In this document: positions 6,544-20,018 of the stretch, in pieces | Numbering within the stretch: position 1 is the stretch's first letter | Layout of the letters: every line of letters begins with the position of its first letter | Source: Pseudomonadota bacterium | GTDB lineage: Bacteria > Desulfobacterota > Binatia > Binatales > Binataceae | Reading direction: 5' to 3' | NCBI GenBank assembly: GCA_021324885.1 | Contig: JAJPIF010000019.1 | Location: forward strand, 21,630-85,629 | Length of the DNA stretch: 64,000 bases | The notes under the pieces: model-generated | What the model was told of the DNA's origin: nothing | Database searches by the model: none | The model's input: only the letters and a program-made list of their open reading frames with translations | Position numbers and translations under genes: made by a program

Positions 6544-6830
6544 CGCACTCTCCCTGCTGACCTGCGCGCCCGCTCAGGCTACCACAAAGCGCGCGGACCG
6601 GTGAAAACGCCCGGGCAAGTCGCGACGCCGGCGCGAGGAAGCCCCTTTAGCGATCGCTAACCCGCTTGTCAGCAAAGCGATGCAACTGCCGCTCCCACCC
6701 GCTGCCGGCCGTCCGGAGCTCGCCTGCGGTCGAGCGGTACGCATTGGGCAGCGGAGGTCTTCTGGGCTCGGTAATTCACCCGCGGGGCTGAGCAGATCGC
6801 CGCCATTTCCGGCGAAGTACCTGATTTTGA

Positions 6831-6877
6831 TTCGCGCGCCCGGAGGGATTTGAACCCCCAACCCTCGGATCCGAAGT
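6831..6877. repeat. att site (distal copy): duplicated 3' portion of tRNA-Arg
   Basis: ttcgcgcgcccggagggatttgaacccccaaccctcggatccgaagt is identical to 19941-19987. Confidence 0.85.
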
Positions 6878-6981
6878 TAGGCGAAACCCGTCCGCGATTG
6901 TCCAGAGGCTGCGTAAATCAAAGGTTTTTCAGTTACGGTACGTCCGCCGAAGTCCGCTTTGGAGCCATCGATCCTTACCCG

Positions 6982-7006
6982 TTGGCTGTCAGAATGGCTG
7001 TCAAAG
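6982..7006. repeat. 25 bp repeat, candidate integrase arm-type site (copy 1)
   Basis: ttGGCTGTCAgaatGGCTGTCAaag is identical to 19872-19896. It contains an internal direct GGCTGTCA x2. Confidence 0.45.
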
Positions 7007-7253
7007 CTTGGCCCTATTTTGGCACCGAACTTGGCACCCTATTTGGCACCAAGGTTTTCACGCTCGTGGCCGCGCGGCGCCCTGCCTTGAGTCGATTTAA
7101 CGTGCCAGAGAACGATTGCCTGATCAGTTATCTTGCCCAACGCAGACGCCAGGCCTCGGCGACTTTTGTTACCCTCCTCAGATGTCTCACAAGGTGACAA
7201 GAGTTCTTGCCCCGCAGTGCTGGGGTACGAGTACTGGCAGTCGTTCATGCCGA

Positions 7254-7934
7254 TCAAATTGAAAGCACCAACCGGCTTTGCGACGTACTTCGAAAAAAGA
7301 CTTTGCAGAAATACTCTCCGAAATCGTCGCAGTACTCGAAGATGCCCTTAACGACAAAGTCGCGCCCTCGTTTCGCAGAATCAGCCTCTCTCCTGTCGAA
7401 CCAATTTTCGAAAAGAGCGGCGCTGTCAGATTCGCCCCCAATGTCCTTAAGCCCGGCGACCAGTCTTACTTCGCCGGTTTTCGAGTCTCGCAATCTGGCC
7501 ATGTGGTGGATATCGAAACGTCCAGTGGCACCGCCGGAATGGGACAGATCAACGTTGAATCTCAGCGCCGGAAGGTGCCCACTGTTATGAAAATACAGCA
7601 CAACGCCTGACTTCTTGCTGGCTCCGTCGGCACTTTCGATGAATTGACCAACTAATCCGTCTTTTCGTCCCATGCTGACGTAAGGCCGAGCATTTGCCTG
7701 GAAAAATTGACTATTTTGATTGTCAGATTCGCGAGTAAACTCCGTATAACAGCCCACGGCCAGAAGCGTGAGAAAAAGAATGAAAAGGTTCCACTTAGCT
7801 AGGCATAAGGCCGATTCCTCGAGCCTAAGCCGTGCAATTTCAGGGTGAAGCACTGATAGCGGTTGCGTTTCCTTTCCGCGAGCAGTCTTGCGGCGCTTCC
7901 ACCTCGCCACTGCCGGGGCCCTCCTCGCCGTCAC
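7254..7934 (-). CDS. Hypothetical membrane-anchored protein (element cargo); start uncertain
   Basis: 226-codon ORF starting at GTG 7934; an alternative GTG is at 7853. One hydrophobic helix, WNLFILFLTLLAVGCY, then a ~170 aa domain with no motif I recognise. GC is visibly lower than in the flanks. Confidence 0.55.
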   Translation of the reverse strand: MTARRAPAVARWKRRKTARGKETQPLSVLHPEIARLRLEESALCLAKWNLFILFLTLLAVGCYTEFTRESDNQNSQFFQANARPYVSMGRKDGLVGQFIESADGASKKSGVVLYFHNSGHLPALRFNVDLSHSGGATGRFDIHHMARLRDSKTGEVRLVAGLKDIGGESDSAALFENWFDRREADSAKRGRDFVVKGIFEYCDDFGEYFCKVFFRSTSQSRLVLSI

Positions 7935-8050
7935 TTCACTCCCAATTTCCGCGCCTCGCGCAGCGCCACGCTACGCATCCAGGCGCTAATTCCAAGCCCG
8001 GCCTTACCAGCCGCCTCGACCAGCACGCGCTTTTGCGCGGCCATCACCAA
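7931..8050 (-). pseudogene. Possible ribbon-helix-helix (CopG/MobC-like) remnant
   Basis: Short frame (L/V)MAAQKRVLVEAAGKAGLGISAWMRSVALREARKLGVK* resembles the two helices of an RHH domain. The upstream in-frame IRPSAL could be the beta strand but has no start codon before it. The stop overlaps the GTG of the next ORF (GTGA). Confidence 0.25.
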
Positions 8051-8476
8051 GGCCGATGGCCTGATTCGGTTCGGCCGATTTCCCCGTTTCGACCCGGCGG
8101 TGGTCAGGGCTCGTATCGCAAAAGAGTTATTTGGCCGCGGGCTCGACCGGGACGGGAATCGCGAGCGGAAGCTTCACGCGGCGTGACGATTGAAATCCAC
8201 CCCAGCGCGGGGTAAAAATCCAGGACTAGCCCGTGTGAGCACCCCCTTTCTCATTGGGCTGGCAGAAGGAGCGGGGCCGGCGCCATCAGGTCCCGCTTTC
8301 TTTCCCAAAACCGCGGTAAACGCCCTTCTGCCGCGTCCGGATTCGCCGGACGATGATTTACCCGTCCGCCGCTCGAAAAGCCCAAGCCCGCCAGCGTGGC
8401 TAAGCCGCGCGCACACTTTGACGAATGCCCCTGAGCGGGAAACATCAGCGTAAGTCCATGCCGCCGCCGGCCCCGG

Positions 8477-10597
8477 CTACCGCAAAATCCCAGTCGGAAA
8501 TCCCGCCCGGCTCATGCGCCCGAAGTCGCCAGCGCGGATGGCGTTCTTTACATGCTCTACGACCTGCTCGCCCAGTTCGCGGCCGTTGCTGCCCGACACA
8601 TGAAGCGTCGGCGAAAAGTGGATATCGCCGCCGCGGTTGTTCGTAGTTGAATTGCTGTACGAGGCGCGGATCCCGGCACCCATGCTGCTTACTGCCGACA
8701 TATCCGAACGCGGGATTACGTACTCGCCGGCATGAACCAGCGCTAAGCCGGTCTGTGTAACCGGGCCGCCCTCGGCGAAGCCGAAGATGCCGCCGATCAG
8801 GCCGGCTATGCTTCCGATGCCGCTGGCTATCCCTCCGAGCCCGCCGCCGCCGCTTCCGCCGCCCAGCAATCCGCCCAATGCACCAAAGACCGTGCTAAAG
8901 ATCGACGAGATCGTCGGCGTCAGGTCTTGCCAAACCCTCTCGAACAGGGACTGGATCTGACTCTGCGGGAACAGCGCCTGGAATAACTCATTGTAGCTCT
9001 TGGTCAGTAGCGTGTCAGTGAACCGCTCGGCCATCCGGACGCCTACTTCTTCGAGCGCTCGGCCGGGACCACCGCCGCGCCCGCGACCCCGAGGTGTCAT
9101 CGCGGCTTCGATTACGCTCATCGTCCCGCCTGCCGCTTCGCTCGACATGCGGGAAATCATTTCGTCATGCTGGCGCTGCTCTTCGGCCAGGAACTGCGTG
9201 AACGCATGTAAATTCTTGTTGTAATTTTCGCTGGCCAGTCGCGCCTGCTCGCTGAAATACTGCGTCCAGGCGTGGAGCCGGCGGTTGAAGGCCTGCGCTT
9301 GCTGATTGTCAAAGGCCTGCTGCTGGCGCGCGAATTCGTTGGCCGCTTGCTGCTCTTCGACCAGGGCGCGGCGGTATTCGATCGACTGCTGGCCGAACAG
9401 CTCTTTGGCCTTTTCGACCACGCTCATCATGATGCCGACCTTCACGACGGCGTTGTTCTGAGCCTCAGCCAGCTCGAGTTGCTGCTCTTCTACGAAAGCG
9501 CGGAATTGCTCTTCCGCCGCCTTGTGCGCAGCCGCGGCGCCGCCAGTTTTGGTGACATTGACTTGGTCGCCCGGGCCCCCGACGACGCTGCTGCTGAAGT
9601 TGACCAGCTTGTTGATATCTTCAAGCTGCTTGCGCGCATCGTCGCCTGCCTTGCGCCATAAGTCGGGGCTGAACGGGTGCATTACGACCGTGCCGGCGAT
9701 TTTCAGCCCTTCGATGTACTCAGTGAGATATCCGTTGAGCTTGATCAGCGCCGGCGTTATTTCGGTCGCGACCGTGCGCCACAAGCTCTCGCCCGAGATT
9801 TTCAAGGCTTCCCACGAGCGATGGAGCCGGTCGGCGTCTTCCGCCTGCTCGGTCGTCAGCGGATTTAAGTCGCTGTACGCTTTTTCAAGCTCGAGGATTC
9901 CCTCGCCCCCCTCGCGCATCACCGGCAGGAGTTGCGTTCCCATGCGCGAGCCGAGAAGAGTTGCGGCTTCACCCAACTTTTCGGTCGAATCGCGCGTCTG
10001 CGCCATCGCATCCGCCACGCGCAAAAAGACTTCGTGAGGATTCAGACCCTTCAGCTCATCGATGCTGATCCCGAACGCAGCAAACGCCGCCTGCGCCTGC
10101 TTGCCGCCCTGCTCGGCCTGAACCATTTTTTCGGAAAGCATGGTCATGGAGCGGGCAAGTGCGTCCATCGGAACGTCGGCCAGGCGTGAGACGCCCGCCA
10201 GCGCATTCATCTGCTCGACTGTGATTCCCGTGCGCTCGCTCAGGTGAAGGAGTTGGACCTCGAGCTCATTCGCGCCGGCGGCGCCCTCGATCAGCCGGTG
10301 GCCGAGATCGATCGCGGCGCCGACCAGGAAAACATCGGCGAGCCCCTCAAGCGTGGTCTTAACTGACTCTGCGGCCTCGTTGATTTCCGCGAAGGCGCCT
10401 TTTGATTCATCGGCTGACACCTGCATGGAGCGCGTCAGCTTGGTTATCGAGGCCTGGCCACCGCGCGCCATGCCCTCGAGCGCGCGCTGGGTTTCGGCTG
10501 CGGACTGAGCCGCAATCCGCGCGCTCTCGTTCATCTTACTGACAAAGTCTGAGATCTCGGCCCGGATCACAGCTTGTAATTGAGCATCACTCGGCAT
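8477..10597 (-). CDS. Phage tail tape-measure protein
   Basis: 706 aa, alpha-helical and Ala/Gln-rich. TMP core-like stretch GITVEQMNALAGVSRLADVPMDALARSMTMLSEKM...FAAFGISIDELKGLNPHEVFLRVADAM...LGSRMGTQLLPVM, plus a Gly-rich segment GGGSGGGGLGGIASGIGSIAGLIGGIFG. Confidence 0.8.
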   Translation of the reverse strand: MPSDAQLQAVIRAEISDFVSKMNESARIAAQSAAETQRALEGMARGGQASITKLTRSMQVSADESKGAFAEINEAAESVKTTLEGLADVFLVGAAIDLGHRLIEGAAGANELEVQLLHLSERTGITVEQMNALAGVSRLADVPMDALARSMTMLSEKMVQAEQGGKQAQAAFAAFGISIDELKGLNPHEVFLRVADAMAQTRDSTEKLGEAATLLGSRMGTQLLPVMREGGEGILELEKAYSDLNPLTTEQAEDADRLHRSWEALKISGESLWRTVATEITPALIKLNGYLTEYIEGLKIAGTVVMHPFSPDLWRKAGDDARKQLEDINKLVNFSSSVVGGPGDQVNVTKTGGAAAAHKAAEEQFRAFVEEQQLELAEAQNNAVVKVGIMMSVVEKAKELFGQQSIEYRRALVEEQQAANEFARQQQAFDNQQAQAFNRRLHAWTQYFSEQARLASENYNKNLHAFTQFLAEEQRQHDEMISRMSSEAAGGTMSVIEAAMTPRGRGRGGGPGRALEEVGVRMAERFTDTLLTKSYNELFQALFPQSQIQSLFERVWQDLTPTISSIFSTVFGALGGLLGGGSGGGGLGGIASGIGSIAGLIGGIFGFAEGGPVTQTGLALVHAGEYVIPRSDMSAVSSMGAGIRASYSNSTTNNRGGDIHFSPTLHVSGSNGRELGEQVVEHVKNAIRAGDFGRMSRAGFPTGILR

Positions 10598-10642
10598 TGT
10601 ATTTTGGCCTCAACTATCTATGTAAGTTATCAACGCGGTTAC

Positions 10643-11005
10643 TCAGTTCAGCAATTCCGGTTTTGCAGCCATAGACCCGGTCACGTCGACCCTATAGTTC
10701 GCAAGAGCATAAATCGCGTCGTGAAGGTCGAAGAGGCCAGCGTGTTCCCGCAAGATGTCGGGATCCAAACCGGGATAATTCGGTCTCAGGAAAGCGGCGA
10801 CTATCCACACCTCGCAATCAAATTGAGCCTCGACGTCTCCCCTTAAAACAGCTTCATCCAGCAACGGGTGTACGAGAGCGAGGACAGGGGTAGCGTGCTC
10901 GATTGTTTCATCGCTGGATGCAAGCTGGAATTCCTGGCCGGCGATCACGACGCGAGGGCCTGCGAGCAGCGGATCGCGGATTTTCCCGCTGTACCAATTC
11001 GCCAT
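10643..11005 (-). CDS. Hypothetical protein; possible tail assembly chaperone by position
   Basis: 120 aa, immediately upstream of the tape-measure gene. Its start overlaps the previous stop (TAATG). No diagnostic motif. Confidence 0.5.
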   Translation of the reverse strand: MANWYSGKIRDPLLAGPRVVIAGQEFQLASSDETIEHATPVLALVHPLLDEAVLRGDVEAQFDCEVWIVAAFLRPNYPGLDPDILREHAGLFDLHDAIYALANYRVDVTGSMAAKPELLN

Positions 11006-11325
11006 TACTCATTTTCCTCGCTGTGACTATCCAGGTCGAATCGACTGAGTTTTTCCCGCAACTCGGCGATGATGCGATCGCAGTACACGCCCACGCTGTG
11101 ATGGGTTTTCGCCCTCGCCGCCATCTGTTCGGCGACATACCGGATGGCCGGCGCTGTGCGGTCGAACACTTGGGCGATCTGAGCGTCGGATATGCCGATG
11201 GCGCGCAGGGCATAGGCCGCAACCGCCTGGCGAAAATGCTCGCGCTCCACACCCTGCAGCTCCCTCATGCCCAGCACTTCGCGAACGATCGGGCGTAGAT
11301 ATTTCGTGTCGATTTTCATTGACAT
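11005..11325 (-). CDS. Hypothetical helix-turn-helix protein (DnaA domain IV-like)
   Basis: 106 aa. HFRQAVAAYALRAIGISDAQIAQVFDRTAPAIRYVAEQM resembles the DnaA C-terminal HTH pattern. Confidence 0.5.
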   Translation of the reverse strand: MSMKIDTKYLRPIVREVLGMRELQGVEREHFRQAVAAYALRAIGISDAQIAQVFDRTAPAIRYVAEQMAARAKTHHSVGVYCDRIIAELREKLSRFDLDSHSEENE

Positions 11326-11331
11326 GTAGGA

Positions 11332-11739
11332 TTACTCGGCGATCCAGATACAAGCGCCCTGGAAGGCCGGCTCGTCGCAAATGGCAATGTGATTTAACCG
11401 GGCCTCGAGGACTTCGTGTGTCCGGCCACGTATATTGCGATCGAGGAGGTCGATTCCGACGCTTAACCCCAACGCTTTGCGCCGCAGCAAGGCAAGGACC
11501 GGCTCGTCGGCGCCGATATCGGCGAAAATTGTCAGGTGATCCGGGCTGCAATTCAGCCCCAGGGTTAGGTTCTCAGTCGACGCGATAACTGGGCCGTCAT
11601 GCTCGATTCGCAGATCCACTGGATCGCCAGCTTCTAGGCTGGCATCGAAGGCGCCGGGGCGAATGAGCATTCGCTGATATCGTTCCTTGCCGATACGCAA
11701 ATTACTCGACATCTGGTTAAAGCGGACTGCGATTCCCAC
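11332..11739 (-). CDS. HK97-family phage prohead protease (N-terminus uncertain)
   Basis: VGIAVRFNQ...IRPGAFDASL...VDLRIEHDGPVIAST...LGLSVGI...LNHIAICDEPAFQGA matches the prohead protease pattern. The upstream ~100 codons of track ORF 11332..12033 look out of frame. Start placed at GTG 11739; the next ATG is at 11712. Confidence 0.6.
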   Translation of the reverse strand: MGIAVRFNQMSSNLRIGKERYQRMLIRPGAFDASLEAGDPVDLRIEHDGPVIASTENLTLGLNCSPDHLTIFADIGADEPVLALLRRKALGLSVGIDLLDRNIRGRTHEVLEARLNHIAICDEPAFQGACIWIAE

Positions 11740-12046
11740 GGCGTGTACCCCGTCGGCCGCGTGGAGGTGCGGTTCTTGCCGGCGGCGCCGACTGTGTAGA
11801 TGCCGGCGCAAGTAGGTGGGATGGCGCCTCAATCTCGCCGGGGTCGCCGCCGGTCCAGACGAAGCGATTCTTCTCGGCATTCCAGACCCATCCGGCCGGC
11901 GGCGAGCCGTCATATTCGTCATATTCGTCGTATTGCTCAGCCGCCGCTTGGACAGGGTAGTACCAGGGGACGAGCTCGCCGAGCAGGTTGGCGGCATAGG
12001 ACCGCTCGCGCGGGGCCAGGTGGCTGAGGTCAATCGTTTGTCGCAT
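11717..12046 (-). CDS. Hypothetical protein
   Basis: ATG 12046 is preceded by AAAGGAG. The first ~80 aa look protein-like (acidic EQYDEYDEYD). The last ~30 aa are Arg/Pro-rich and overlap the protease start region. Confidence 0.5.
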   Translation of the reverse strand: MRQTIDLSHLAPRERSYAANLLGELVPWYYPVQAAAEQYDEYDEYDGSPPAGWVWNAEKNRFVWTGGDPGEIEAPSHLLAPASTQSAPPARTAPPRGRRGTRRGNRSPL

Positions 12047-12161
12047 TCGCGTCTCCTTTCTTTGCTCGCTTTTTTTCGAGTTTGCGCGCTCGCTTCTCTG
12101 CCGCCCGGGCGGCCCGCTCGCGTTCGCGCTGATGCTTTAGGAACGAGTTACTCTTTCTCAT
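12030..12161 (-). CDS. Possible small basic protein (43 aa)
   Basis: MRKSNSFLKHQRERERAARAAEKRARKLEKKRAKKGDANATND. Its ATG overlaps the upstream stop as ATGA. It is below the ORF-track size cut-off. Confidence 0.3.
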   Translation of the reverse strand: MRKSNSFLKHQRERERAARAAEKRARKLEKKRAKKGDANATND

Positions 12162-12352
12162 CGGGTCACCTCCGCGGCTCGCGCTGCTACGGCTAAGCGC
12201 TCGGAGCAGAGCCGCAGCAACTTAACCTGCAGTTGCTGGAATTCGGCTGCGGATAGTTCGGCTGGCTTGCTGTTGAGAACGTCCTGGATAAACTCGCTGC
12301 ACCATCGATCGGCGATGCGGCGCGCTAAGCTGTCGAGGTTATGCGGGCTCAT
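12158..12352 (-). CDS. Hypothetical protein
   Basis: 64 aa with ATGA overlaps at both ends, which suggests translational coupling. Confidence 0.5.
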   Translation of the reverse strand: MSPHNLDSLARRIADRWCSEFIQDVLNSKPAELSAAEFQQLQVKLLRLCSERLAVAARAAEVTR

Positions 12353-12861
12353 AATTCGACAATCTCCGGCTCAAAATCGGCTGGCGTCAGCCGGCGTGAC
12401 TCTGCTGGCGATAACAGTTCGTGGCGGCGCAGGTAGCTCGCTTGCGACTCGAAGCGTGGCGGATCGTCGGGGTCTGAGTCCGCCCAGTGCGCAGGGACGC
12501 CGTAATCGAACGCTGGGACATACGCGAACCGTTCCCAAGCCGGCACGCCGCGGCCGCCAACACGCTTGCGCGGCTGGGCAAACTGCGGCCGTTCGGCGGC
12601 GGCAGGGAAAAGCCACGCGAAGAGGTCCGCTTGCGGTGCGCAGAATCGCCACCATAGGCGCGGCCGGCGTCCTGGATGCAACCGGCTGTAATAGGCGAGC
12701 ACGTCAGGCATCACGGCGAGGGCGATCGCGCGCATCTCATCGTCGGATCGGAACATGACCTCGAACGGTTCGTCTTCGGTCTCCTCGACGAACCAGCGCC
12801 AGAGCTCTTCGCTCGTGACCTCGGGCCGGCTGGCGCGGACTGGACGCGGTTTGCGTGGCAT
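12349..12861 (-). CDS. Hypothetical phage-element protein
   Basis: 170 aa. Starts 3 nt after the terS stop and ends in an ATGA overlap. No motif recognised. Confidence 0.6.
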   Translation of the reverse strand: MPRKPRPVRASRPEVTSEELWRWFVEETEDEPFEVMFRSDDEMRAIALAVMPDVLAYYSRLHPGRRPRLWWRFCAPQADLFAWLFPAAAERPQFAQPRKRVGGRGVPAWERFAYVPAFDYGVPAHWADSDPDDPPRFESQASYLRRHELLSPAESRRLTPADFEPEIVEL

Positions 12862-12864
12862 GGC

Positions 12865-13212
12865 TTATTTCCTCTCGCTCACTGGCGAATCGAGATTCAA
12901 CTCGCGCATCGCGCGCTGGTAGATGCGGGCGCAGGCTGCCTGAACGGTCAAGGCGGGATGGGGTCGCGTCACCCCATGTTTGTCTGTGAAGTATGGGCCC
13001 TCGCGCTCGACGGTCTGGCGCGCCTGCTCGCTACGATCGAGAGCTTCGAGCGCGGTCTGTAAATGCGCGAGGTGATGCACTTCGAGAACGTAGGCCCTGG
13101 CGATCTCGCGCCACAGGCGCCTTGACTTGTCGCTCAGGTGGCGCGGCGGGGCCGGGATCGTCGGCCGGCGAAGCGGGCGGAATGGAATGGCGTTGCTCTT
13201 GGTCATGGTCAT
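12865..13212 (-). CDS. Phage terminase small subunit, P27-family-like
   Basis: 115 aa. PPRHLSDKSRRLWREIARAYVLEVHHLAHLQTALEALDRSEQARQTVEREGPYFTDKHGVTRPHPALTV...MRELNLD follows the P27 TerS pattern. Confidence 0.65.
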   Translation of the reverse strand: MTMTKSNAIPFRPLRRPTIPAPPRHLSDKSRRLWREIARAYVLEVHHLAHLQTALEALDRSEQARQTVEREGPYFTDKHGVTRPHPALTVQAACARIYQRAMRELNLDSPVSERK

Positions 13213-13294
13213 TTAAGCTGAAATTCGTTCTCGTTCATGTTTTTGTGATTGCAGGCGCGGTCGCAGCCGCGCCGCGTCAGAGATTTGCACCCCC

Positions 13295-13567
13295 CTACCC
13301 CCGACCGTCTTTGAGTTCGGCGATGCGAGCGAAAAAAGCTTCGCTGGCGCGGCGCAGGTAGCGATCGAGCAAAGTCTCAAGCAGGGACCGTTCAGCGACG
13401 TCGCAGATCTGAGTAATCTCGGGAAGCGAACCGAACTTTTGCACCATGGCGCTGCGCACGGTACTCATCACTTCGGCGACGTCGTTATTCAGCTTGGCTT
13501 CGGTCTGACTGCTCAACCATTGCTCGATGCTTTTCAGCCCTTCCTGGATGAATTGTCTTGAATCCAT
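13295..13567 (-). CDS. Hypothetical protein
   Basis: Start at the internal ATG (MDSRQFIQEGL...), preceded by AGGAGA. 90 aa, helical. Confidence 0.55.
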   Translation of the reverse strand: MDSRQFIQEGLKSIEQWLSSQTEAKLNNDVAEVMSTVRSAMVQKFGSLPEITQICDVAERSLLETLLDRYLRRASEAFFARIAELKDGRG

Positions 13568-13578
13568 TTTCGGATCTC

Positions 13579-14244
13579 CTACGCGGATCCCCTCGCAGGT
13601 CGCGAGAATAACCATTCGGTCGGCTCGGCGAGCTCGGGCACTTCCGCGAGCATTGCTTCAAATTTCCGTTGCCTCTCTTCGCCATCGGCGATGAGCGCAA
13701 TCACGGTGTCTAAGGCGCGATCGAGCGCGACCAAGGCGGCGAGGCGCGCGCGAACTGATGGCGCATTGGTCGTCGTGTGGAATTCTTTGGTCAGGCTCAA
13801 CGCATTGTATTTCCCGGTAAATCGCTGGCTGGTCTCGAGCGATTTGCTGGTTAACTCGCGCAGCTCACGGATCCTTTCGCGATAACCTGAGATTTCCGCG
13901 GCAACCTGATTACGCAGGCGCGTCTCCAGCAGCGCTATTCGGTTGTCGGCACGCATGGAGCAGTCGAGGACGTCGCTATCGGCTTTCATCCGCCGATCGC
14001 GAGCGGCTTCGAATTGGCGTTCCGCTTCAATGGCTGCCTGGCGCGCGTCTTCTGCTGCCTGGCGCAAACCGGGCAGCTCCTTCATGGCCGCGGCGCGGAT
14101 CTCGGCGATCTCGTCGATAATCTTCTGGCGCTGCTGAGTTTCGAGCTTTTCGTTTTCGGTGATCAGCTTGCGGCCGAGGCTCGTCTGTTTGAACCAGTCG
14201 GGGAAATTTCGGACCTGCTGCTCTCGTTCTAACTGAGTATCCAT
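13579..14244 (-). CDS. Hypothetical coiled-coil protein
   Basis: 221 aa with AAAGGAGAA upstream. Long heptad-like Glu/Arg/Ala-rich helices. Confidence 0.6.
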   Translation of the reverse strand: MDTQLEREQQVRNFPDWFKQTSLGRKLITENEKLETQQRQKIIDEIAEIRAAAMKELPGLRQAAEDARQAAIEAERQFEAARDRRMKADSDVLDCSMRADNRIALLETRLRNQVAAEISGYRERIRELRELTSKSLETSQRFTGKYNALSLTKEFHTTTNAPSVRARLAALVALDRALDTVIALIADGEERQRKFEAMLAEVPELAEPTEWLFSRPARGSA

Positions 14245-14275
14245 TGTTTTCTCCTTTGCTGTTTGAATGTTTTGC

Positions 14276-14750
14276 TCAATGCCAGACCGCGCCGAACGTA
14301 GTATCCAAAGCGCCCGGCGTATACTGAGTCGGATCGCTGTTGACGCTGTTGCAGATCAGCACGCCATTTTTGACGTACAGACCAGGACGAAAATCGAATA
14401 CCCAGTCGTTTGCCGGATTGGACTGGCATTGCTGCGCCGGTGCGATCTGATTGCTGGTCGGCGGCGCGGCAGCCTGGTCGTAAATCTGGATTATACTGCG
14501 CCGATCCGGTGCAGTGTCCCCAGGCGAACATTAGCGATGCTTGCGCCGCGTCCGGGAAGGCTTGGCAGTTCCCCAGTTGGCTAGACGTCTCGCTGGTCAG
14601 ATCGCTCTTGGTCGCGGGACCGCCGGCTACGCTCGGCGTAGGCACCGGGTAGGGCGTTGGCGTCGGCGTGGTGGCGAAGGCTTGTGCGGCGGCGAGCGTC
14701 ACCCAAACCGCGGCGACGATAATGAGACGCGTGCAATTCGATGATTTCAT
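14276..14750 (-). pseudogene. Secreted protein gene interrupted by a frameshift
   Basis: N-terminus MKSSNCTRLIIVAAVWVTLAAAQAFA is signal-peptide-like and is followed by a Thr/Pro linker in one frame. A plausible C-terminus, ...SIIQIYDQAAAPPTSNQIAPAQQCQSNPANDWVFDFRPGLYVKNGVLICNSVNSDPTQYTPGALDTTFGAVWH*, lies in another frame. The switch is near the C4/G4 run at 14518-14521. Confidence 0.5.
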
Positions 14751-14953
14751 TCCGCTTCCCTCCACCTCTGAATCATTCGGTCTATTTCTTCGCGCTCTTG
14801 GGCGCGGCGTGCCTCTTCACGCCGGCGCTCCGCTTCGATCCGATCGGCTGCCTTTTGACATGTCGTGCAGCGCTGGAATCGGTTCGCGCCGGCCCACCAC
14901 GGCGATGTCCCGGCGCAGTCAACGCAGCGCCAGATTTTTGCTGGGCTTCTCAT
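14747..14953 (-). CDS. Small zinc-ribbon protein
   Basis: MRSPAKIWRCVDCAGTSPWWAGANRFQRCTTCQKAADRIEAERRREE... has CxxC...CxxC. ATGA overlaps with the replicase stop and with the next start. Confidence 0.5.
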   Translation of the reverse strand: MRSPAKIWRCVDCAGTSPWWAGANRFQRCTTCQKAADRIEAERRREEARRAQEREEIDRMIQRWREAE

Positions 14954-17355
14954 GCAACCCATCCATCGGCGGCGGCGACGCGGTCGATCTCGGCCTTTTC
15001 GCTGTCGCGGCCTGCATATCGCAGCGCGGCAAGAAAGCGATCCCCAACTTCCGCATCCGCCGGCGCGCCGGGCTTGACCGGCCGCATCGGGCCGCGGAAG
15101 ATGCCGCGCTGATGAACGCTGAGAAAGCTCGAGCCAGGGAACATGGCTGCAACACAATCGATCGTGGCGGCCAGGTCGCCAGGATTCCGGCCACCCTGTT
15201 CAAGGTGCAGTGCTGTTTGGGACTGCCGCTGGCCGGAATTAGGCCTTATTTTTACTGGGTTTTCTTGCGCTGCCGGGATTCCGGCCGATACCCCGTTGTC
15301 TGTATATGAGTGAACATACCGGCCGGAATCCGCTATCTCTGAAGCCCTTGGGGCAGAAGGACTTTTTGAATCGGATTCCGGCCGCCCTTGGGGCAGAAGG
15401 CCGGCCGGAATCGGGTCGTCGCTCCCCCTACTCTCGCAGCCATTTTCATTTCTGAAATAGTGTGCCGAGAGTATAGAATATATATAGTGCGGATCCGCTT
15501 TCGTTCCTTTCCCGCGCACAATCCAGTCACGGCCTATGCCGGCGTCGATAATCGCTCTTGCCCGGTTGCGCCCGACGCCGTTATTCACAAGGATTTCGAC
15601 TGCGGTAGTCCGCTTGGGAACCGGCAAAGCAGCCTTGAGCGCAGCGACAGCCTCTCGCTCTTTCTCCCGGCGCAACTCGATGGCAGTGCCCTTCGCCTGC
15701 TCGTGCTCCAGCTCTACATCTGCGGTCACGTCGGCTACGGTCCACTCGCCCTCGTCGGGCAAACGAACCTCAAGGATGAAGGGATCGGGCTCTTCAGCAA
15801 GGCGGAATTTTGAGGGCACGAACGCCAGCCGGTAGGACGGGCGGCGCTTACGCCGTTTTGAGCGGCTCGCCCATTCTGCTTCACCTGCCGGGGGCAGGCA
15901 ATCGATCCACGATTCCTTTTTCGCGTCGAGCGGAAGGTCGGTCGCGTCCCGGACCTCATACACGATATCGACGCGATCCCCGATGACTCCGGAGCCGCGG
16001 AGCACCTGGCCGTCTTTGCGCGTGTTCGCTAAGGCGAGAATGCCCGGACCCTTGCGCCCGGTGTCGAGTAGGCTGGCGATCGCCTTTCCGTTGTCGCCGC
16101 CTTCGCCGTCCTTGACCGTCTCCATGGCTGACGAGAGCGAGTCCAGCGCCACCAGCTCGTACTTGCTGAATGGAAACGTCGCCCACGCCTTTGCATCGGT
16201 CAGTGGGGGCACCTCATCGCGCTTCATGACATCGAGATTAGTTAGGTCGCCCGCTCCCCATGCTTTGAGCCGGCGCTTTAGTTCGGCGGGCGGGTTGTCG
16301 CGATCGAGTAATAAGACCTTACCCGGCTCGAGCTTTTCGCCCAGAAAAAAACCGCCGGTCGCCTTCGCTACGACGAGAGCAAGCAGGAAATGGGTTTTAC
16401 ACAGGCCGCGCGGACTGACTATTACTGTGACGGCCTGGCGCACGATCAGATTACGGACTATCCAGTCAGCTTCCTGCGATTCAGCGGCGATGAAGTCTTT
16501 GGCGGTGCGGGCTTTCGACCAGACGTCGCCAGCGCTCTGGGTCTTACGCTCTTCGGGCTCGGGATAGACTGTGTAAGCGCGATCGACTTTATCGGCTGCC
16601 TTATCGGCGGGGAAAGCGGGCTTACATTTAGCGGCCGCCTCCAGTACCAGCTTGCGCGCCATATCCACTGGAATACCGGCGCCGCGGAGTTTGCACGCGA
16701 ATTTGAAAAGCTGCTCGTCTCGCTGGCCCTCCGGGACGCCCGCCAGCACGGCGGCACTGTCGATCGAACCGCCAGCACCCGTTGTCGCGTTGCGGGAATT
16801 CTGTAGCAGGGCCACGAGGCTCGCGGGGAGTGGCGCGACCTCGATCTCGGCTGGGCTGTAGCCCACCTCGAAGCGGTATTCACCGAGGAGGTGATTCGAC
16901 GGAGGTGCCAGGACATAACCGCCGAGCGACTTGATATCGACGCCCGGTCCCAGCTTGTTATTACCGCTCGAAATTTCGCCCGGGCTTCGAAACCAAACAT
17001 GCAGTCCGCCGCTCGGCGTGAGTGTGCGGACGGTGTCAGGAAGAGGATGGGGCAAACTGGCTACCAGCGCCGCCCATGTTTCATCGCCTCCATGCCGCGG
17101 GTCGATATCGACAACAGCTAGTCCGGAGGGTCCGCAGGATATTGCGATGTTTGCCGGCTCGCGCCACCAGCCCTCGATCTGTGCGCGATTGATCGTCGCC
17201 TCGAGGTGGCCATTGCGCGGGATGGGATGCTTGCCGGGCGAGCCGCAGTCGGACTTGCGGCAGGTGCACTTGCCGTCGTCGATCCAGTGGGTGGGAAAAA
17301 CGTGAAAACCGTGCTCGGCGTACCAGAGGGCCGCCGCTTTTTGCTTCGGGCTCAT
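14950..17355 (-). CDS. Bifunctional primase-polymerase (Prim-Pol) / helicase-type replicase
   Basis: 801 aa. N-terminus AALWYAEHGFHVFP...NIAISCGPSGLAVVDIDPRHGG...GGLHVWF...GYVLAPPS is Prim-Pol-like. The central region has a RepA/AAA-like P-loop (IVSPRGLCKTHFLLALV...LLLDRDN). Confidence 0.85.
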   Translation of the reverse strand: MSPKQKAAALWYAEHGFHVFPTHWIDDGKCTCRKSDCGSPGKHPIPRNGHLEATINRAQIEGWWREPANIAISCGPSGLAVVDIDPRHGGDETWAALVASLPHPLPDTVRTLTPSGGLHVWFRSPGEISSGNNKLGPGVDIKSLGGYVLAPPSNHLLGEYRFEVGYSPAEIEVAPLPASLVALLQNSRNATTGAGGSIDSAAVLAGVPEGQRDEQLFKFACKLRGAGIPVDMARKLVLEAAAKCKPAFPADKAADKVDRAYTVYPEPEERKTQSAGDVWSKARTAKDFIAAESQEADWIVRNLIVRQAVTVIVSPRGLCKTHFLLALVVAKATGGFFLGEKLEPGKVLLLDRDNPPAELKRRLKAWGAGDLTNLDVMKRDEVPPLTDAKAWATFPFSKYELVALDSLSSAMETVKDGEGGDNGKAIASLLDTGRKGPGILALANTRKDGQVLRGSGVIGDRVDIVYEVRDATDLPLDAKKESWIDCLPPAGEAEWASRSKRRKRRPSYRLAFVPSKFRLAEEPDPFILEVRLPDEGEWTVADVTADVELEHEQAKGTAIELRREKEREAVAALKAALPVPKRTTAVEILVNNGVGRNRARAIIDAGIGRDWIVRGKGTKADPHYIYSILSAHYFRNENGCESRGSDDPIPAGLLPQGRPESDSKSPSAPRASEIADSGRYVHSYTDNGVSAGIPAAQENPVKIRPNSGQRQSQTALHLEQGGRNPGDLAATIDCVAAMFPGSSFLSVHQRGIFRGPMRPVKPGAPADAEVGDRFLAALRYAGRDSEKAEIDRVAAADGWVA
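15184..15490. other. Candidate origin of replication (iterons plus AT-rich tract) embedded in the replicase gene
   Basis: Six copies of GGCCGGAAT/ATTCCGGCC in alternating orientation, at 15184, 15231, 15278, 15321, 15375 and 15403. Two copies of CCCTTGGGGCAGAAGG, at 15345 and 15385. AT-rich gagtatagaatatatatagtg at ~15459-15489. The repeats are read in different codon phases. Confidence 0.45.
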
Positions 17356-17666
17356 CGCGGCTCTCTTTGCAGATCAGACCTTGGAGCGTGATAAACCCAC
17401 AGACCGCATCGTGCGCAGAAGACGCTACTGTGGGGCCCGCGGCGCTCGATGCGCCCATTCAGTGAGCCGCAAGCGCTGACGCCGGAAAAGAGCGGAAGTT
17501 GACCGCCGCTCATTCGGCCGCCTCGCGCCCAGACTGTCTCAAGTCGGGCCAGGCGCCGCCGCAAGTCTCGAATCTCGCGAGCCAGCAGGGCAATACTTTG
17601 CCGATTTAATTCAATGCGTGTTTTCTGCTCGCGCCGCCGCCTCACCGCATCCACCGCGCGTTTCAT
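17352..17666 (-). CDS. Hypothetical protein
   Basis: 104 aa, basic coiled N-terminus. ATGA overlap with the replicase start. Confidence 0.5.
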   Translation of the reverse strand: MKRAVDAVRRRREQKTRIELNRQSIALLAREIRDLRRRLARLETVWARGGRMSGGQLPLFSGVSACGSLNGRIERRGPHSSVFCARCGLWVYHAPRSDLQREPR

Positions 17667-17673
17667 CGGGCGC

Positions 17674-17874
17674 CTATTCCGCGCGCTGCTCCGCGGTCGC
17701 GAGTTGCTGTAAGCGTGTCAGTTCGGTCGCGGGTATGCGTATATTACCGCCGATTTTCACGGCTTTGATCTCGCCTTGGTTAATCAGGAGGTAGACCGTA
17801 GAGCGCGAGGCATCGATCAGCTTGGCGAATCTTGCCGGCTTCAAAAGCGCCGGCGTGACATCCACTTCAGCCAT
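17674..17874 (-). CDS. Excisionase-family HTH DNA-binding protein
   Basis: 66 aa. FAKLIDASRSTVYLLINQGEIKAVKIGGNIRIP matches the MerR-like excisionase HTH pattern. Confidence 0.75.
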   Translation of the reverse strand: MAEVDVTPALLKPARFAKLIDASRSTVYLLINQGEIKAVKIGGNIRIPATELTRLQQLATAEQRAE

Positions 17875-17901
17875 TTTCCATCCATCCCTGTCCGACGTTT
17901 A

Positions 17902-17930
17902 TTGACAATCGCGTATCAGTCGGCTATTTA
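17902..17930 (+). promoter_or_regulatory. Candidate sigma70-like promoter for the zinc-ribbon/integrase operon
   Basis: TTGACA (17902-17907), 17 nt spacer, TATTTA (17925-17930), about 90 nt upstream of ATG 18021. Confidence 0.35.
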
Positions 17931-18020
17931 CATATGAACGTACCGGACGAGCGCGGACGCGGTCAAGGCAAATGAAGACGCTCAATTCAATATGGACGTA
18001 ATTTAAATGGTAGGACGGAA

Positions 18021-18704
18021 ATGACACGACCCAAGGACATTGAAGAGCAGGAAATTGGCTGGCGGGTCTTCGAACACGTCGCGGAAATGGGCCCGGAACA
18101 GCAGCTCGCGTGGCTGCTTGAATTCCTTCAGCTATCATCCGACAACCTTTGGGAGCGCTGGCCGGATTTGCGCATCGAAGCTGGCGCCTTCGCCTTTGGG
18201 CAGCCGCAGACCAGGCCGATCGATATCTCTCGCGATGATCTGATCGGTCTCGTGCGGCAGGTCAGCGAAGGCGTGCGGACGCTGGCCAGCGGCCGAGAAT
18301 GGCGGCTCGAAATTCCGGCGATCACCAAGGTTTATTTACCGCGTGTTGTCAAAGGGCGGCGCGGTAAACTGCAATTTTCAGGTTGGGACAGCCAACGCGC
18401 GGTATCGGATTTCCGAACTGCATTTCTGGCTTGGGTCGACGATCTGATTTCCGATCGAGTCGCGGGCGCACGGCTGCGCGCGTGCGCCAGACCGGGATGC
18501 GGCCGGCTCTTCGTCAAGAAGAAGCGCGGTATCTATTGTAGCCAACGGTGCAGCCAGGCCGAGCGCAACAAGCGCTATTACCGATCACTCGCGAAGAAAG
18601 ACCGCCAAGCTTCCCGTCACGATCGCTACGTCGCGGAAGTCAAACGGATCAGTCCGGCCGCCGCGAAACTCGTGCGCCGGCGTACCAAGGAGAACGTGGA
18701 ATGA
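18021..18704 (+). CDS. Protein with C-terminal CGNR/FCS-like zinc ribbon; putative element regulator
   Basis: 227 aa. C-terminus ACARPGCGRLFVKKKRGIYCSQRCSQAERNKRYY is a C-x4-C ... C-x3-C ribbon followed by a basic tail. The stop overlaps the integrase ATG (ATGA). Confidence 0.65.
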   Translation: MTRPKDIEEQEIGWRVFEHVAEMGPEQQLAWLLEFLQLSSDNLWERWPDLRIEAGAFAFGQPQTRPIDISRDDLIGLVRQVSEGVRTLASGREWRLEIPAITKVYLPRVVKGRRGKLQFSGWDSQRAVSDFRTAFLAWVDDLISDRVAGARLRACARPGCGRLFVKKKRGIYCSQRCSQAERNKRYYRSLAKKDRQASRHDRYVAEVKRISPAAAKLVRRRTKENVE

Positions 18705-19849
18705 AACAGAGCAAGCGCCGTGGGCGAGGCGAGGGTGCTATTTTCCGCCGAAAAGATGGGCGGTGGGCAGCCAGCGTCAATCTTGGCTGGAAAGCCGGAA
18801 AACGCTGGCGAAAAAGCTTCTACGGCGCCACTCGCAAAGAAGTGGCGGACGCGCTGGCGAAGGCATTGCGCGATCGCCAGCAAGGCCTGCCCCTCGCAAA
18901 TGAAAAGCAGACGGTTAGCGCATTTCTGGCACACTGGCTTGAACACACGGTTAAGCCGAGCGTGCGGCCCCGCACGCATCAAAGCTACGAACTCCTTGCC
19001 CGCCTCCACGTTCTGCCCGAGCTGGGTAATAAGCCGCTTGCTCAACTCGCGCCAGAGCATGTGGAGTCGCTGCTCGCGCGCAAGCTCGCCTCCGGGCTTG
19101 CGGCCCAGACGGTTCGGCACATCAGGACCGTCTTAAAAAAAGCTCTCGGACAAGCAGTGAAACGCGGCCATCTCGCCCGAAACGTCGCCGCCATGGTTGA
19201 TCCGCCGCGGCTACAGCGGCGCCAACAGGGTCAGGTACTGGATGCGGAACAGACACGCATGCTGCTGGCCGCTGCTGAATCAGGGCGCCTGTGGGCGCTT
19301 TTGGTCATTGCTGTTTCGCTCGGGCTTCGGCGTGGCGAAATACTCGGGCTGCGCTGGCTAGACCTCGACCTCGACAAGTCGCGGATCGCAATCGGTCAGG
19401 CGATTCAGCGCTACTCCGGTATTGGCCTCAAGGCGGCCGAGCCCAAGACAGGACGGTCACGCCGCGTCCTGAATCTACCGCAAGCCTGCGCCCGCGCCTT
19501 GCGCGCCTGGAGGGCCCGCCAGGCCGAAGAGCGTCTGGCCGCTGGGCCTGAATGGCGGGACAGCGGGCTCGTCTTTACGACGCCTTTCGGCACGCCGATC
19601 GATCCACGAAACCTGCACCGCCAATTTAAAGCCTTGCTCATGGCAGCCGGATTACCGCAAGCGGTCCGATTTCACGATCTCCGGCATGGGTGCGCTTCAT
19701 ACCTGCTCAGCCAAGGCGTGCCGCTCAAAACCATTTCCGATCTGCTCGGCCACAGTTCGATCACGGTAACCTCCGACATTTACGCGCACATCGCGCCGCA
19801 AATGCTTCAGGAAGCAGCCGCCAAAATGGATGCGCTCCTTGATGGCTAA
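18701..19849 (+). CDS. Tyrosine-type site-specific integrase
   Basis: Start MKQSKRRGRGEGAIFRRKDGRW. SAM-like N-domain. Catalytic region ...GLRRGEILGLRW... HDLRHGCASYLLSQGVPLKTISDLLGHSSITVTSDIYAHI. Confidence 0.9.
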   Translation: MKQSKRRGRGEGAIFRRKDGRWAASVNLGWKAGKRWRKSFYGATRKEVADALAKALRDRQQGLPLANEKQTVSAFLAHWLEHTVKPSVRPRTHQSYELLARLHVLPELGNKPLAQLAPEHVESLLARKLASGLAAQTVRHIRTVLKKALGQAVKRGHLARNVAAMVDPPRLQRRQQGQVLDAEQTRMLLAAAESGRLWALLVIAVSLGLRRGEILGLRWLDLDLDKSRIAIGQAIQRYSGIGLKAAEPKTGRSRRVLNLPQACARALRAWRARQAEERLAAGPEWRDSGLVFTTPFGTPIDPRNLHRQFKALLMAAGLPQAVRFHDLRHGCASYLLSQGVPLKTISDLLGHSSITVTSDIYAHIAPQMLQEAAAKMDALLDG

Positions 19850-19871
19850 GTGTCCGACATCGTCCAGCCGT

Positions 19872-19896
19872 TTGGCTGTCAGAATGGCTGTCAAAG
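19872..19896. repeat. 25 bp repeat, candidate integrase arm-type site (copy 2)
   Basis: Identical to 6982-7006. Lies between the integrase stop and the att core. Confidence 0.45.
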
Positions 19897-19940
19897 AGGT
19901 GTCGGCGGATGGCTTCAATTGGGAAAAGTGCTTGATTTCA

Positions 19941-19987
19941 TTCGCGCGCCCGGAGGGATTTGAACCCCCAACCCTCGGATCCGAAGT
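19941..19987. repeat. att site (tRNA-proximal copy)
   Basis: Identical to 6831-6877. Covers the 3' 43 nt of tRNA-Arg plus 4 nt. Confidence 0.85.
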
Positions 19988-20018
19988 CCGATGCTCTGTC
20001 CAGTTGAGCTACGGGCGC
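19945..20018 (-). tRNA. tRNA-Arg (anticodon TCG)
   Basis: Reverse complement GCGCCCGTAGCTCAACTGGACAGAGCATCGGACTTCGGATCCGAGGGTTGGGGGTTCAAATCCCTCCGGGCGCG folds as a cloverleaf. Acceptor GCGCCCG/CGGGCGC, anticodon stem TCGGA/TCCGA with loop CTTCGGA, T-arm GGGGG TTCAAAT CCCTC. Confidence 0.9.

Follow-up and report, generated by a model that had tools for sequence, protein, structure and literature searches.

Where on its own DNA, and by means of which protein, would an integrative element begin to replicate once it has left the chromosome of its host? The question is raised by a 13.1-kb island (6830-19987) in a stretch of 64,000 nucleotides, here called the window, from a bacterium of the Binataceae that is known from metagenomes only (GenBank assembly GCA_021324885.1, contig JAJPIF010000019.1, positions 21,630 to 85,629 of the forward strand). 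The island, which is integrative and carries an integrase, an AlpA-like helix-turn-helix protein and a small terminase subunit (TerS), is of a kind that must replicate after excision. Its replicase open reading frame (ORF; 14950-17355, minus strand) codes for 801 amino acids, arranged as Prim-Pol, PriCT_1 and AAA_25 domains, a predicted winged-helix-like C-terminal domain and a long tail, and it is the DNA coding for this tail that bears six copies of a short repeat. The interpretation favoured here, at a probability of about three in four, is that the six repeats are the iterons of the island's replication origin, that they are bound by the island's own Prim-Pol/AAA_25 replicase, and that they are embedded in a translated linker of the same protein. 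A first-pass annotation of this DNA had suggested a probable origin of the P4 and SaPI type; arrays in related genes and co-variation of the repeats with the protein support a putative origin, yet the likeness to P4 and SaPI is one of working and not of family membership, since the replicase is not homologous to P4 alpha or SaPI Rep.

The repeat array in the window

The nonamer GGCCGGAAT or its complement is present in six exact copies, at 15184 (-), 15231 (+), 15278 (-), 15321 (+), 15375 (-) and 15403 (+), the orientation alternating strictly. Together they span 228 bp (15184-15411) inside the 3' part of the replicase ORF, where they correspond to residues 649-724, and copies of the same orientation lie 82-97 bp apart. 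The whole window holds 10 copies of the nonamer against 1.27 expected, a number reached in none of 100 shuffles, and a k-mer scan of the 64 kb found the array to be the sole nonamer cluster with at least four copies per 350 nt. The remaining four copies (22625, 44311, 52111 and 55444) are scattered singles in unrelated contexts; for this reason a REP-type genome-wide repeat, with its many dispersed and usually intergenic copies, which the first-pass annotation had itself set against its proposal, is ruled out. The six positions listed in that annotation proved exact, as did its two copies of the 16-mer CCCTTGGGGCAGAAGG at 15345 and 15385, where 0.03 are expected.

Read in the orientation of the gene, the array begins with iteron 1 (15403-15411; ATTCCGGCC on the coding strand), the counterpart of copy two in the canonical array of the family, described below. 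Iteron 2 (15375-15383; GGCCGGAAT on the coding strand) follows at 28 bp and iteron 3 (15321-15329) at a further 54 bp, both of them canonical spacings. Iteron 4 (15278-15286) stands at a non-canonical 43 bp, as it does in the closest relative, L001 (42 bp), and is followed at 47 bp each by iterons 5 (15231-15239) and 6 (15184-15192). Copy A of the 16-mer (15385-15400; CCTTCTGCCCCAAGGG on the coding strand) fills the 19-bp spacer between iterons 1 and 2, includes the mini-palindrome CCTT-N7-AAGG and is kept in degenerate form in L001, L006 and L008; copy B (15345-15360) lies in the spacer of iterons 2 and 3.

Directly before the array in gene orientation, an AT-rich tract (15455-15489, 65-71% AT) encodes HYIYSIL, the end of the predicted winged-helix domain, and is a candidate unwinding site. 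It holds the AT-richest 31-mer of the replicase ORF (15455-15485, 71% AT), which adjoins the array much as the first-pass annotation had it, although as an unwinding element the patch is weakly distinctive. A second AT-rich patch (15235-15268) lies between iterons 5 and 4.

Some smaller features accompany the array. An overlapping near-copy of opposite orientation, ATACCGGCC, precedes iteron 3 (15316-15329) and makes TACCGGCCGGAAT nearly palindromic, and CCGGCCGG, itself a palindrome, occurs at 15319 and 15401. A sigma-70-like match (CTGAAA-16 nt-TAGAAT, 15452-15479, plus strand) in the AT patch, antisense to the winged-helix coding region, is given no weight. Rfam 15 yielded no match at E <= 1 on 15050-15600 and none at the arrays of 15 related loci, and at the gathering threshold, too, no known RNA family was matched.

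Arrays in related replicase genes

Related loci, 105 in number, were gathered from metagenomes and metagenome-assembled genomes of Acidobacteriota, Terriglobia, Rokubacteria/Methylomirabilota, Eremiobacteraceae and others, and arrays were counted over the 76 usable distinct loci among them (33-67% protein identity). The idea, voiced in the first-pass annotation, that homologous replicase genes might carry element-specific repeats at the same position is borne out. Of the 76 loci, 69 have an array, built of a 9-11-mer specific to the locus, that begins 10-100 nt past the conserved C-terminal domain, and of 1020 control windows taken from these loci 5 pass the same test (0.5%). The geometry is shared across the family: orientation alternates, spacings are ~55/28/55 bp with a period of ~83 bp, and the span is ~148 bp for four copies and ~232 bp for six. 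The sequences differ, with more than 12 different motifs across the loci, including GGCGGAAAT, GGCCGAAAT, CAACCGAAAT, GGCAGAAAT, GGCGCAAAT, GTGCGAAAT, GTACGAAAT, TGACAAAAGGTCG, GCCGCACGGTT and CGGCGACGA. Even in L001, the closest relative (67% identity), the layout is kept and each copy reads GGCAGGAAT/ATTCCTGCC where the window has GGCCGGAAT/ATTCCGGCC (taken as 11-mers, the repeats are CGGCCGGAATC in the window and CGGCAGGAATC in L001). The subfamily of the window retains a 55/28/54 core. An AT peak of 54%, against a baseline of 35-40%, lies ~10 nt before the first repeat of the family array.

The array accompanies the module of AAA_25 and C-terminal domain whichever N-terminal module precedes it, be it Prim-Pol/PriCT_1, a DnaG-type zinc ribbon, DUF3854 or nothing detectable (L093, L054, L062, L008, L045, L059 and L039 differ in this respect). 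Since the AAA_25/C-terminal/array unit stays constant under such varied N-terminal modules, primases appear to have been swapped around a putative helicase-origin unit. A second array was sought without success in the island and in the available flanks of the relatives, where 4 stray copies were counted in 186 kb. Searches by tblastn found no relative in PLSDB or INPHARED, the matches in IMG/VR came down to one distant locus and a copy of the L001 element, and a single-protein scan of GTDB genomes gave no match.

The 46-nt spacers of many loci (e.g. L098, L056 and L054) contain a semi-conserved GAAACCCGC-N7-GCGGGTTCCAGA-like palindrome, and the 16-mer of the window (CCTT-N7-AAGG) stands at the equivalent place; in some loci the spacer palindrome is GAAACCCGC-N7-GCGGGTTC, and L022 has the same CTTGGGGCAGAAGG in opposite orientation. 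This palindrome may be the site of a second protein. A conserved spacer hairpin, the 16-mer included, was considered and rejected, as 110 spacers fold no better than shuffles or gene-internal controls, and no structural claim is made for it.

A replicase residue that co-varies with the repeat

The Prim-Pol domain of the replicase (residues 9-177) and its AAA_25 helicase-type ATPase (287-448) are matched with Pfam E-values of 8e-38 and 9e-15, the PriCT_1 match is weak, and a PHROG search matches the protein to primase families. Conservation of the protein extends to about residue 629 (…ADPHYIYSIL), where some homologues stop and others continue into variable tails. For the segment upstream of the array, AlphaFold2 (AF2) predicts a helix-turn-helix and a beta-hairpin at a confidence (pLDDT) above 90. 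The predicted winged-helix domain is encoded by 15469-15702 (minus strand; residues ~552-629), and its recognition helix would start from R596 (codon 15568-15570). The domain has no sequence match in the PDB, and no significant fold or sequence match to the structures of P4 alpha or SaPI Rep.

Aligned with R596, which opens the third helix, the predicted recognition helix, is a residue that co-varies with one base of the repeat, Arg or Lys going with G and Gln with A. All 18 loci of the Gln class have an AC-type motif at the aligned position. The 49 loci of the Arg/Lys class comprise 33 with GGC, 6 with CGC and 10 with other G/C-rich triplets, which look like register shifts of the same motif; AAC is found in none of them. 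Ala pairs with TAC (two loci) and His with GTG (one locus). Contacts of arginine with guanine and of glutamine with adenine are classical. Mapped on a tree computed from the remainder of the protein, the switches number at least 13 for the residue class and at least 14 for the base, the states at the tips staying matched, and nearest tree neighbours of different residue class always differ in motif; examples of such switches are L056/L093 within a Gln clade, L074 versus L054, and L073/L040 versus L039. A second specificity residue, sought by eye for repeat position 4 (C, A or G after GGC), gave no clear pattern. The repeats are probably duplex binding sites for the replicase's own C-terminal domain; the co-variation is the strongest evidence for this and supports the specificity of the proposed binding.

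Constraint on the DNA of a translated linker

The first-pass annotation had placed the repeats inside the replicase ORF, had held that their copies are translated in different frames, and had concluded that conservation lies in the DNA; on each of these points the analysis agrees. The frame is open and the array is translated, ATTCCGGCC being read as IPA, (D)SG(R) and (N)SG(Q), and GGCCGGAAT as (R)PE(S), AGI and GRN, so that all three frames are used, and the 16-mer is translated once as LLPQG and once as PSAPRA. Between the window and L001, substitutions at codon positions 1, 2 and 3 amount to 0.17-0.30, 0.10-0.20 and 0.52-0.59 in the three domains, and to 0.27, 0.35 and 0.35 in the tail. Third positions are thus better conserved in the tail than in the gene body, and this codon-position test gives no sign of protein-level selection in the tail. 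The AF2 confidence falls below 50 over most of residues 640-768. The constraint on the array is one on DNA and not on protein, because the copies are read in three frames, an excess of third-position substitutions is absent and the encoded segment is predicted to be disordered.

The reading frame is nevertheless kept across the family. The frame of the ORF is open through the fourth copy in 62 of 71 loci, against 9 of 142 for the other two forward frames and 29 of 213 for the reverse frames at the same loci; the stop codon comes a median of 76 nt past the array and often overlaps the start of the next gene as NTGA. In the predicted model the array is translated as a tolerant, disordered linker, the same DNA being cis site and filler coding sequence. 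It is a clean case of a cis-acting DNA constraint hidden in a coding region, in which what looks like 'protein conservation' between relatives follows from conservation of the DNA.

Beyond the array, the replicases of the family mostly end in an acidic stretch whose last residue is hydrophobic (DDDEVRL, DDEEVRL, DREEF or VEEEL), and 43 of 61 family members have at least two D/E within their last seven residues. Such acidic ends, seen for example in the last ~10 codons of L056 (1263-1292), L068 (5188-5217) and L001 (5982-6011), recall the acidic C-termini of T7 gp4 and SSB. The window replicase differs in having a 77-residue extension ending in AADGWVA (14950-15183, minus strand; residues 725-801), unusually long compared with its relatives and containing a low-confidence predicted helix at ~769-796.

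A proposed mechanism

After excision of the island the replicase would be made, and its winged-helix-like C-terminal domains would bind the alternately oriented iterons in the 3' part of their own gene, with Arg596, at the start of the recognition helix, reading the G of GGC in each repeat. The following steps are proposed by analogy with characterized systems, as is the origin activity that they would bring about. Alternating sites at fixed spacing would assemble and load the helicase on the DNA, probably as hexamers and possibly as two facing ones; nearby AT-rich DNA would melt, the candidates being 15455-15489 and/or 15235-15268; and the Prim-Pol domain would lay down primers for extension by a host polymerase.

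A more tentative proposal, possible and yet on balance doubtful, is that the embedding of the origin in a translated linker, between the origin-binding domain and a short acidic tail, is a selected design. Transcription and translation of the replicase would then run through its own origin, which may favour loading of the nascent protein in cis and/or activate the origin by transcription, and the 55/28-bp lattice, with up to six sites, would set in place the six winged-helix domains belonging to one hexamer or to two that meet head to head. If this were true, the element would possess a self-contained replicon module in which one gene is initiator, helicase, primase and origin, with a specificity that could be re-programmed by a simple Arg/Gln-to-G/A code.

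Several points weigh against an origin bound by the replicase. The co-variation speaks for binding by the replicase domain and not for origin function as such, and the tree on which its switches were counted is a quick neighbour-joining tree of ~150 columns. The winged-helix assignment rests on the topology predicted by AF2; the top Foldseek matches are all winged-helix proteins (PadR, MarR, MecI, RecQ1-WH and TFIIIC-WH), none of them significant (best E = 0.26). The array of the window departs from the canonical geometry, its first canonical copy being degenerate and its later spacings 43-47 bp. The AT-rich tract does not extend far, the window has about 60 places as rich in AT, and the family shows no conservation of a long unwinding element. 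Finally, the read depth of the island equals that of its flanks in four metagenome runs, with no sign of replication there, and the island, standing at single copy, is therefore quiescent in those four metagenomes.

Alternative explanations

An unlikely alternative is that the functional form of the array is a folded nucleic acid, either hairpins or a cruciform in single-stranded DNA or a fold of the mRNA, in which pairing would matter and not a sequence read by a protein; the models would be a stem-loop origin of the pRN1 type or primase entry hairpins such as ssiA/ssiB of RSF1010. Neighbouring copies are indeed always inverted, the single-stranded DNA of the array folds into three hairpins (z = -4.3), and between the window and L001 both arms have changed together with pairing kept. 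Moreover, a Prim-Pol helicase gene with a stem-loop origin on its 3' side is found in pRN1 and in phage BIP-1 (PMC4234260). Pairing alone, however, needs no identity among all of the 4-6 copies of a locus, such as is found, nor does it account for a repeat sequence that co-varies with a protein residue; the 46-nt spacers, with mean z of -0.34/-0.40 versus -0.17 in controls, fold no better than shuffles, and Rfam offers no match. Folding is in part compatible with an origin bound by the replicase, as bound iterons could extrude too.

It is likewise improbable that the repeats bind the replicase's C-terminal domain while the origin lies elsewhere, the array then serving for copy-number control by handcuffing, as a transcriptional roadblock, or as a partition or centromere-like site. 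What gives this reading its footing is that co-variation shows only the identity of the binder, and that P4 is known to have a second iteron region (crr) apart from its ori. Against it stand the lack of a second array in the island and in the flanks of its relatives, where the few stray copies mentioned above were all that was found, and the fact that no conserved cis feature other than the array goes with the helicase module; its position and its AT-rich neighbour match known origins (PMC9371898).

Packaging (pac/cos) or recombination sites read by the small terminase, the integrase or an excisionase would be a very improbable explanation. The island does encode TerS, an integrase and an AlpA-like protein, and terminase and integrase arm sites are often short repeats, but the array always follows the helicase C-terminal domain and co-varies with it, and the att sites of the island are 4.5-8 kb away and TerS 2 kb away. 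A repeated peptide motif, or chance repetition in GC-rich DNA, without any cis function, has next to no likelihood, for although the array sits in an ORF of conserved frame, it is read in three frames as a predicted disordered segment with no third-position substitution excess, none of the 100 shuffles attains the number of copies observed, and its geometry recurs in 69 of the 76 related loci.

Comparison with known replication systems

By analogy, the element of the window would work like the origins of SaPI Rep, P4 alpha and lambda O. Judged by its domains, the replicase belongs to none of the families of SaPI Rep, P4 alpha, lambda O, N15 RepA and pRN1 ORF904. In SaPI Rep, from the pathogenicity islands of Staphylococcus aureus, a C-terminal winged-helix domain recognises island-specific iterons, which are placed in opposite orientations at the 3' end of rep, next to AT-rich DNA (PMC9371898). 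SaPI Rep/PriRep and the window share an integrative island of phage-satellite type and an initiator, in the window a putative one, that is the helicase itself, in SaPI sometimes fused to a primase. The SaPI Reps, however, are AAA+ proteins of an MCM-like clade and the window protein combines an AAA_25 RecA-type ATPase with Prim-Pol, with no detectable sequence relationship between them, and the SaPI iterons, of 5-6 bp, come after the stop codon and flank a central AT region, whereas those of the window family, of 9-11 bp, lie inside the ORF at 55/28-bp spacing.

P4 alpha joins primase, helicase and a C-terminal winged-helix origin-binding domain in one polypeptide and acts at short repeats in both orientations (PMC4234260), and a primase-helicase with a winged helix, here a predicted one, and repeats in both orientations is likewise what the window presents. 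The parts are of different descent: P4 alpha has a DnaG/Toprim primase and an SF3 (D5-type) helicase, whereas Pfam finds only Prim-Pol, PriCT_1 and AAA_25 in the window replicase. Membership of the P4 alpha family is ruled out on the ground that DnaG/Toprim and SF3 domains are missing from the Pfam matches. P4 also needs its second repeat region, crr, and none was found for the window element.

An origin inside the coding sequence of its own initiator, as proposed here, has its likeness in lambda O and N15 RepA. The iterons of lambda also fall in the linker-coding part of gene O. The iterons of this gene, ITN1-4, are accompanied there by an AT-rich tract, and in N15 initiation takes place inside repA (PMC3349717, PMC2847241). 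Lambda O differs in being an initiator only, which recruits the host helicase, and in that its iterons are 19-bp palindromes in a direct array; the window replicase has no sequence similarity to lambda O or N15 RepA.

The ORF904 protein of pRN1 is made up of Prim-Pol, a PriCT-type helical domain, a helicase and a C-terminal winged helix, with an origin at the 3' side, and Bordetella phage BIP-1 is arranged likewise (PMC4234260). Prim-Pol with a PriCT-type domain, and an origin (in the window a proposed one) 3' of the conserved part of the gene, are thus common to both; pRN1, in contrast, has an SF3 helicase and one stem-loop of ~100 nt after the stop codon, without iterons, where the window has multiple identical short repeats inside the ORF. 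A replicase of the ORF904 type with a stem-loop origin is ruled out by the AAA_25 ATPase and by the multi-copy array inside the ORF. The origin of RSF1010 combines iterons with hairpin-forming inverted repeats (PMC4234260). Its system contains the same three activities, and AAA_25 is the family type of RepA-like hexameric helicases, yet RSF1010 divides them among a separate iteron binder (RepC), helicase (RepA) and primase (RepB'), with direct 20-bp iterons, in contrast to the one fused protein and alternating repeats of the window.

The island and its neighbouring genes

The island is inserted in a tRNA-Arg gene (19944-20018, minus strand) and bounded by 48-bp direct repeats, the left att (6830-6877) repeating the 3' half of tRNA-Arg and the right att (19940-19987) lying within the gene. 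A tyrosine integrase (18548-19849, plus strand; Phage_integrase, E = 8e-29) stands at one end. An AlpA/excisionase-type HTH_17 protein (17674-17874, minus strand), assigned from precomputed Pfam results on the same gene in L002/L003, lies upstream of the replicase, and the packaging gene of the island is TerS (12865-13212, minus strand; Terminase_4 / phrog_83). A CGNR zinc-finger protein of 227 aa (18021-18704, plus strand), encoded between the genes for the AlpA-like protein and the integrase and overlapping the longest integrase ORF at its 3' end, may be an island regulator. The island also encodes a prohead protease fragment of 112 aa, covering model positions 37-152 only, and a tape-measure-like protein of 706 aa. 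No capsid, portal or large terminase was detected in the island among the ORFs scanned with Pfam and PHROGs. With its integrase, TerS and few virion-related genes, and without capsid, portal and large terminase, the island resembles an element of the phage-satellite type; it is a satellite in which a few virion-related genes persist, or else a prophage that has decayed.

The stop codon of the replicase, TGA, overlaps the ATG of the next ORF as GCATGA. The 68 aa of this small zinc-ribbon ORF (14747-14953, minus strand; MRSPAKIWRCVDCAG…FQRCTTCQ…) include two CxxC pairs as well as a helix rich in Glu and Arg. The ORF is uncalled, and the same interval is left empty in the gene calls of the identical contigs L002 and L003. 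Immediately following the replicase, the closest relatives have a gene for a TubC_N-like protein (…ARGIRL…VVEPASRLT…; L001 6018-6461, L008 3452-3682, L006 1218-1406), a homologue of which was not found in the window by tblastn (best E = 1.2). L098 contains a match to the Rfam int-alpA RNA (RF02996) at 1993-2062 (plus strand; 38.2 bits), an RNA without a match in the window, and the related loci L009, L062, L068, L085 and L093 adjoin tRNA genes.

Significance

The family, its 83-bp lattice, the placement of the array in a translated disordered linker and the residue-base rule appear to be undescribed in the literature searched. The present work identifies a likely origin, together with its reader, for a family of integrative elements of uncultured soil phyla, among them Acidobacteriota, Methylomirabilota/Rokubacteria and Eremiobacterota, and describes a compact module in which primase, helicase, putative origin binder and putative origin share one ORF. 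As specificity variants occur naturally by the dozen and a rule linking residue to base is visible, the family offers a testable system for origin recognition by a self-loading helicase and for the divergence of incompatibility groups, and the module is a candidate minimal replicon for bacteria which are currently without genetic tools.

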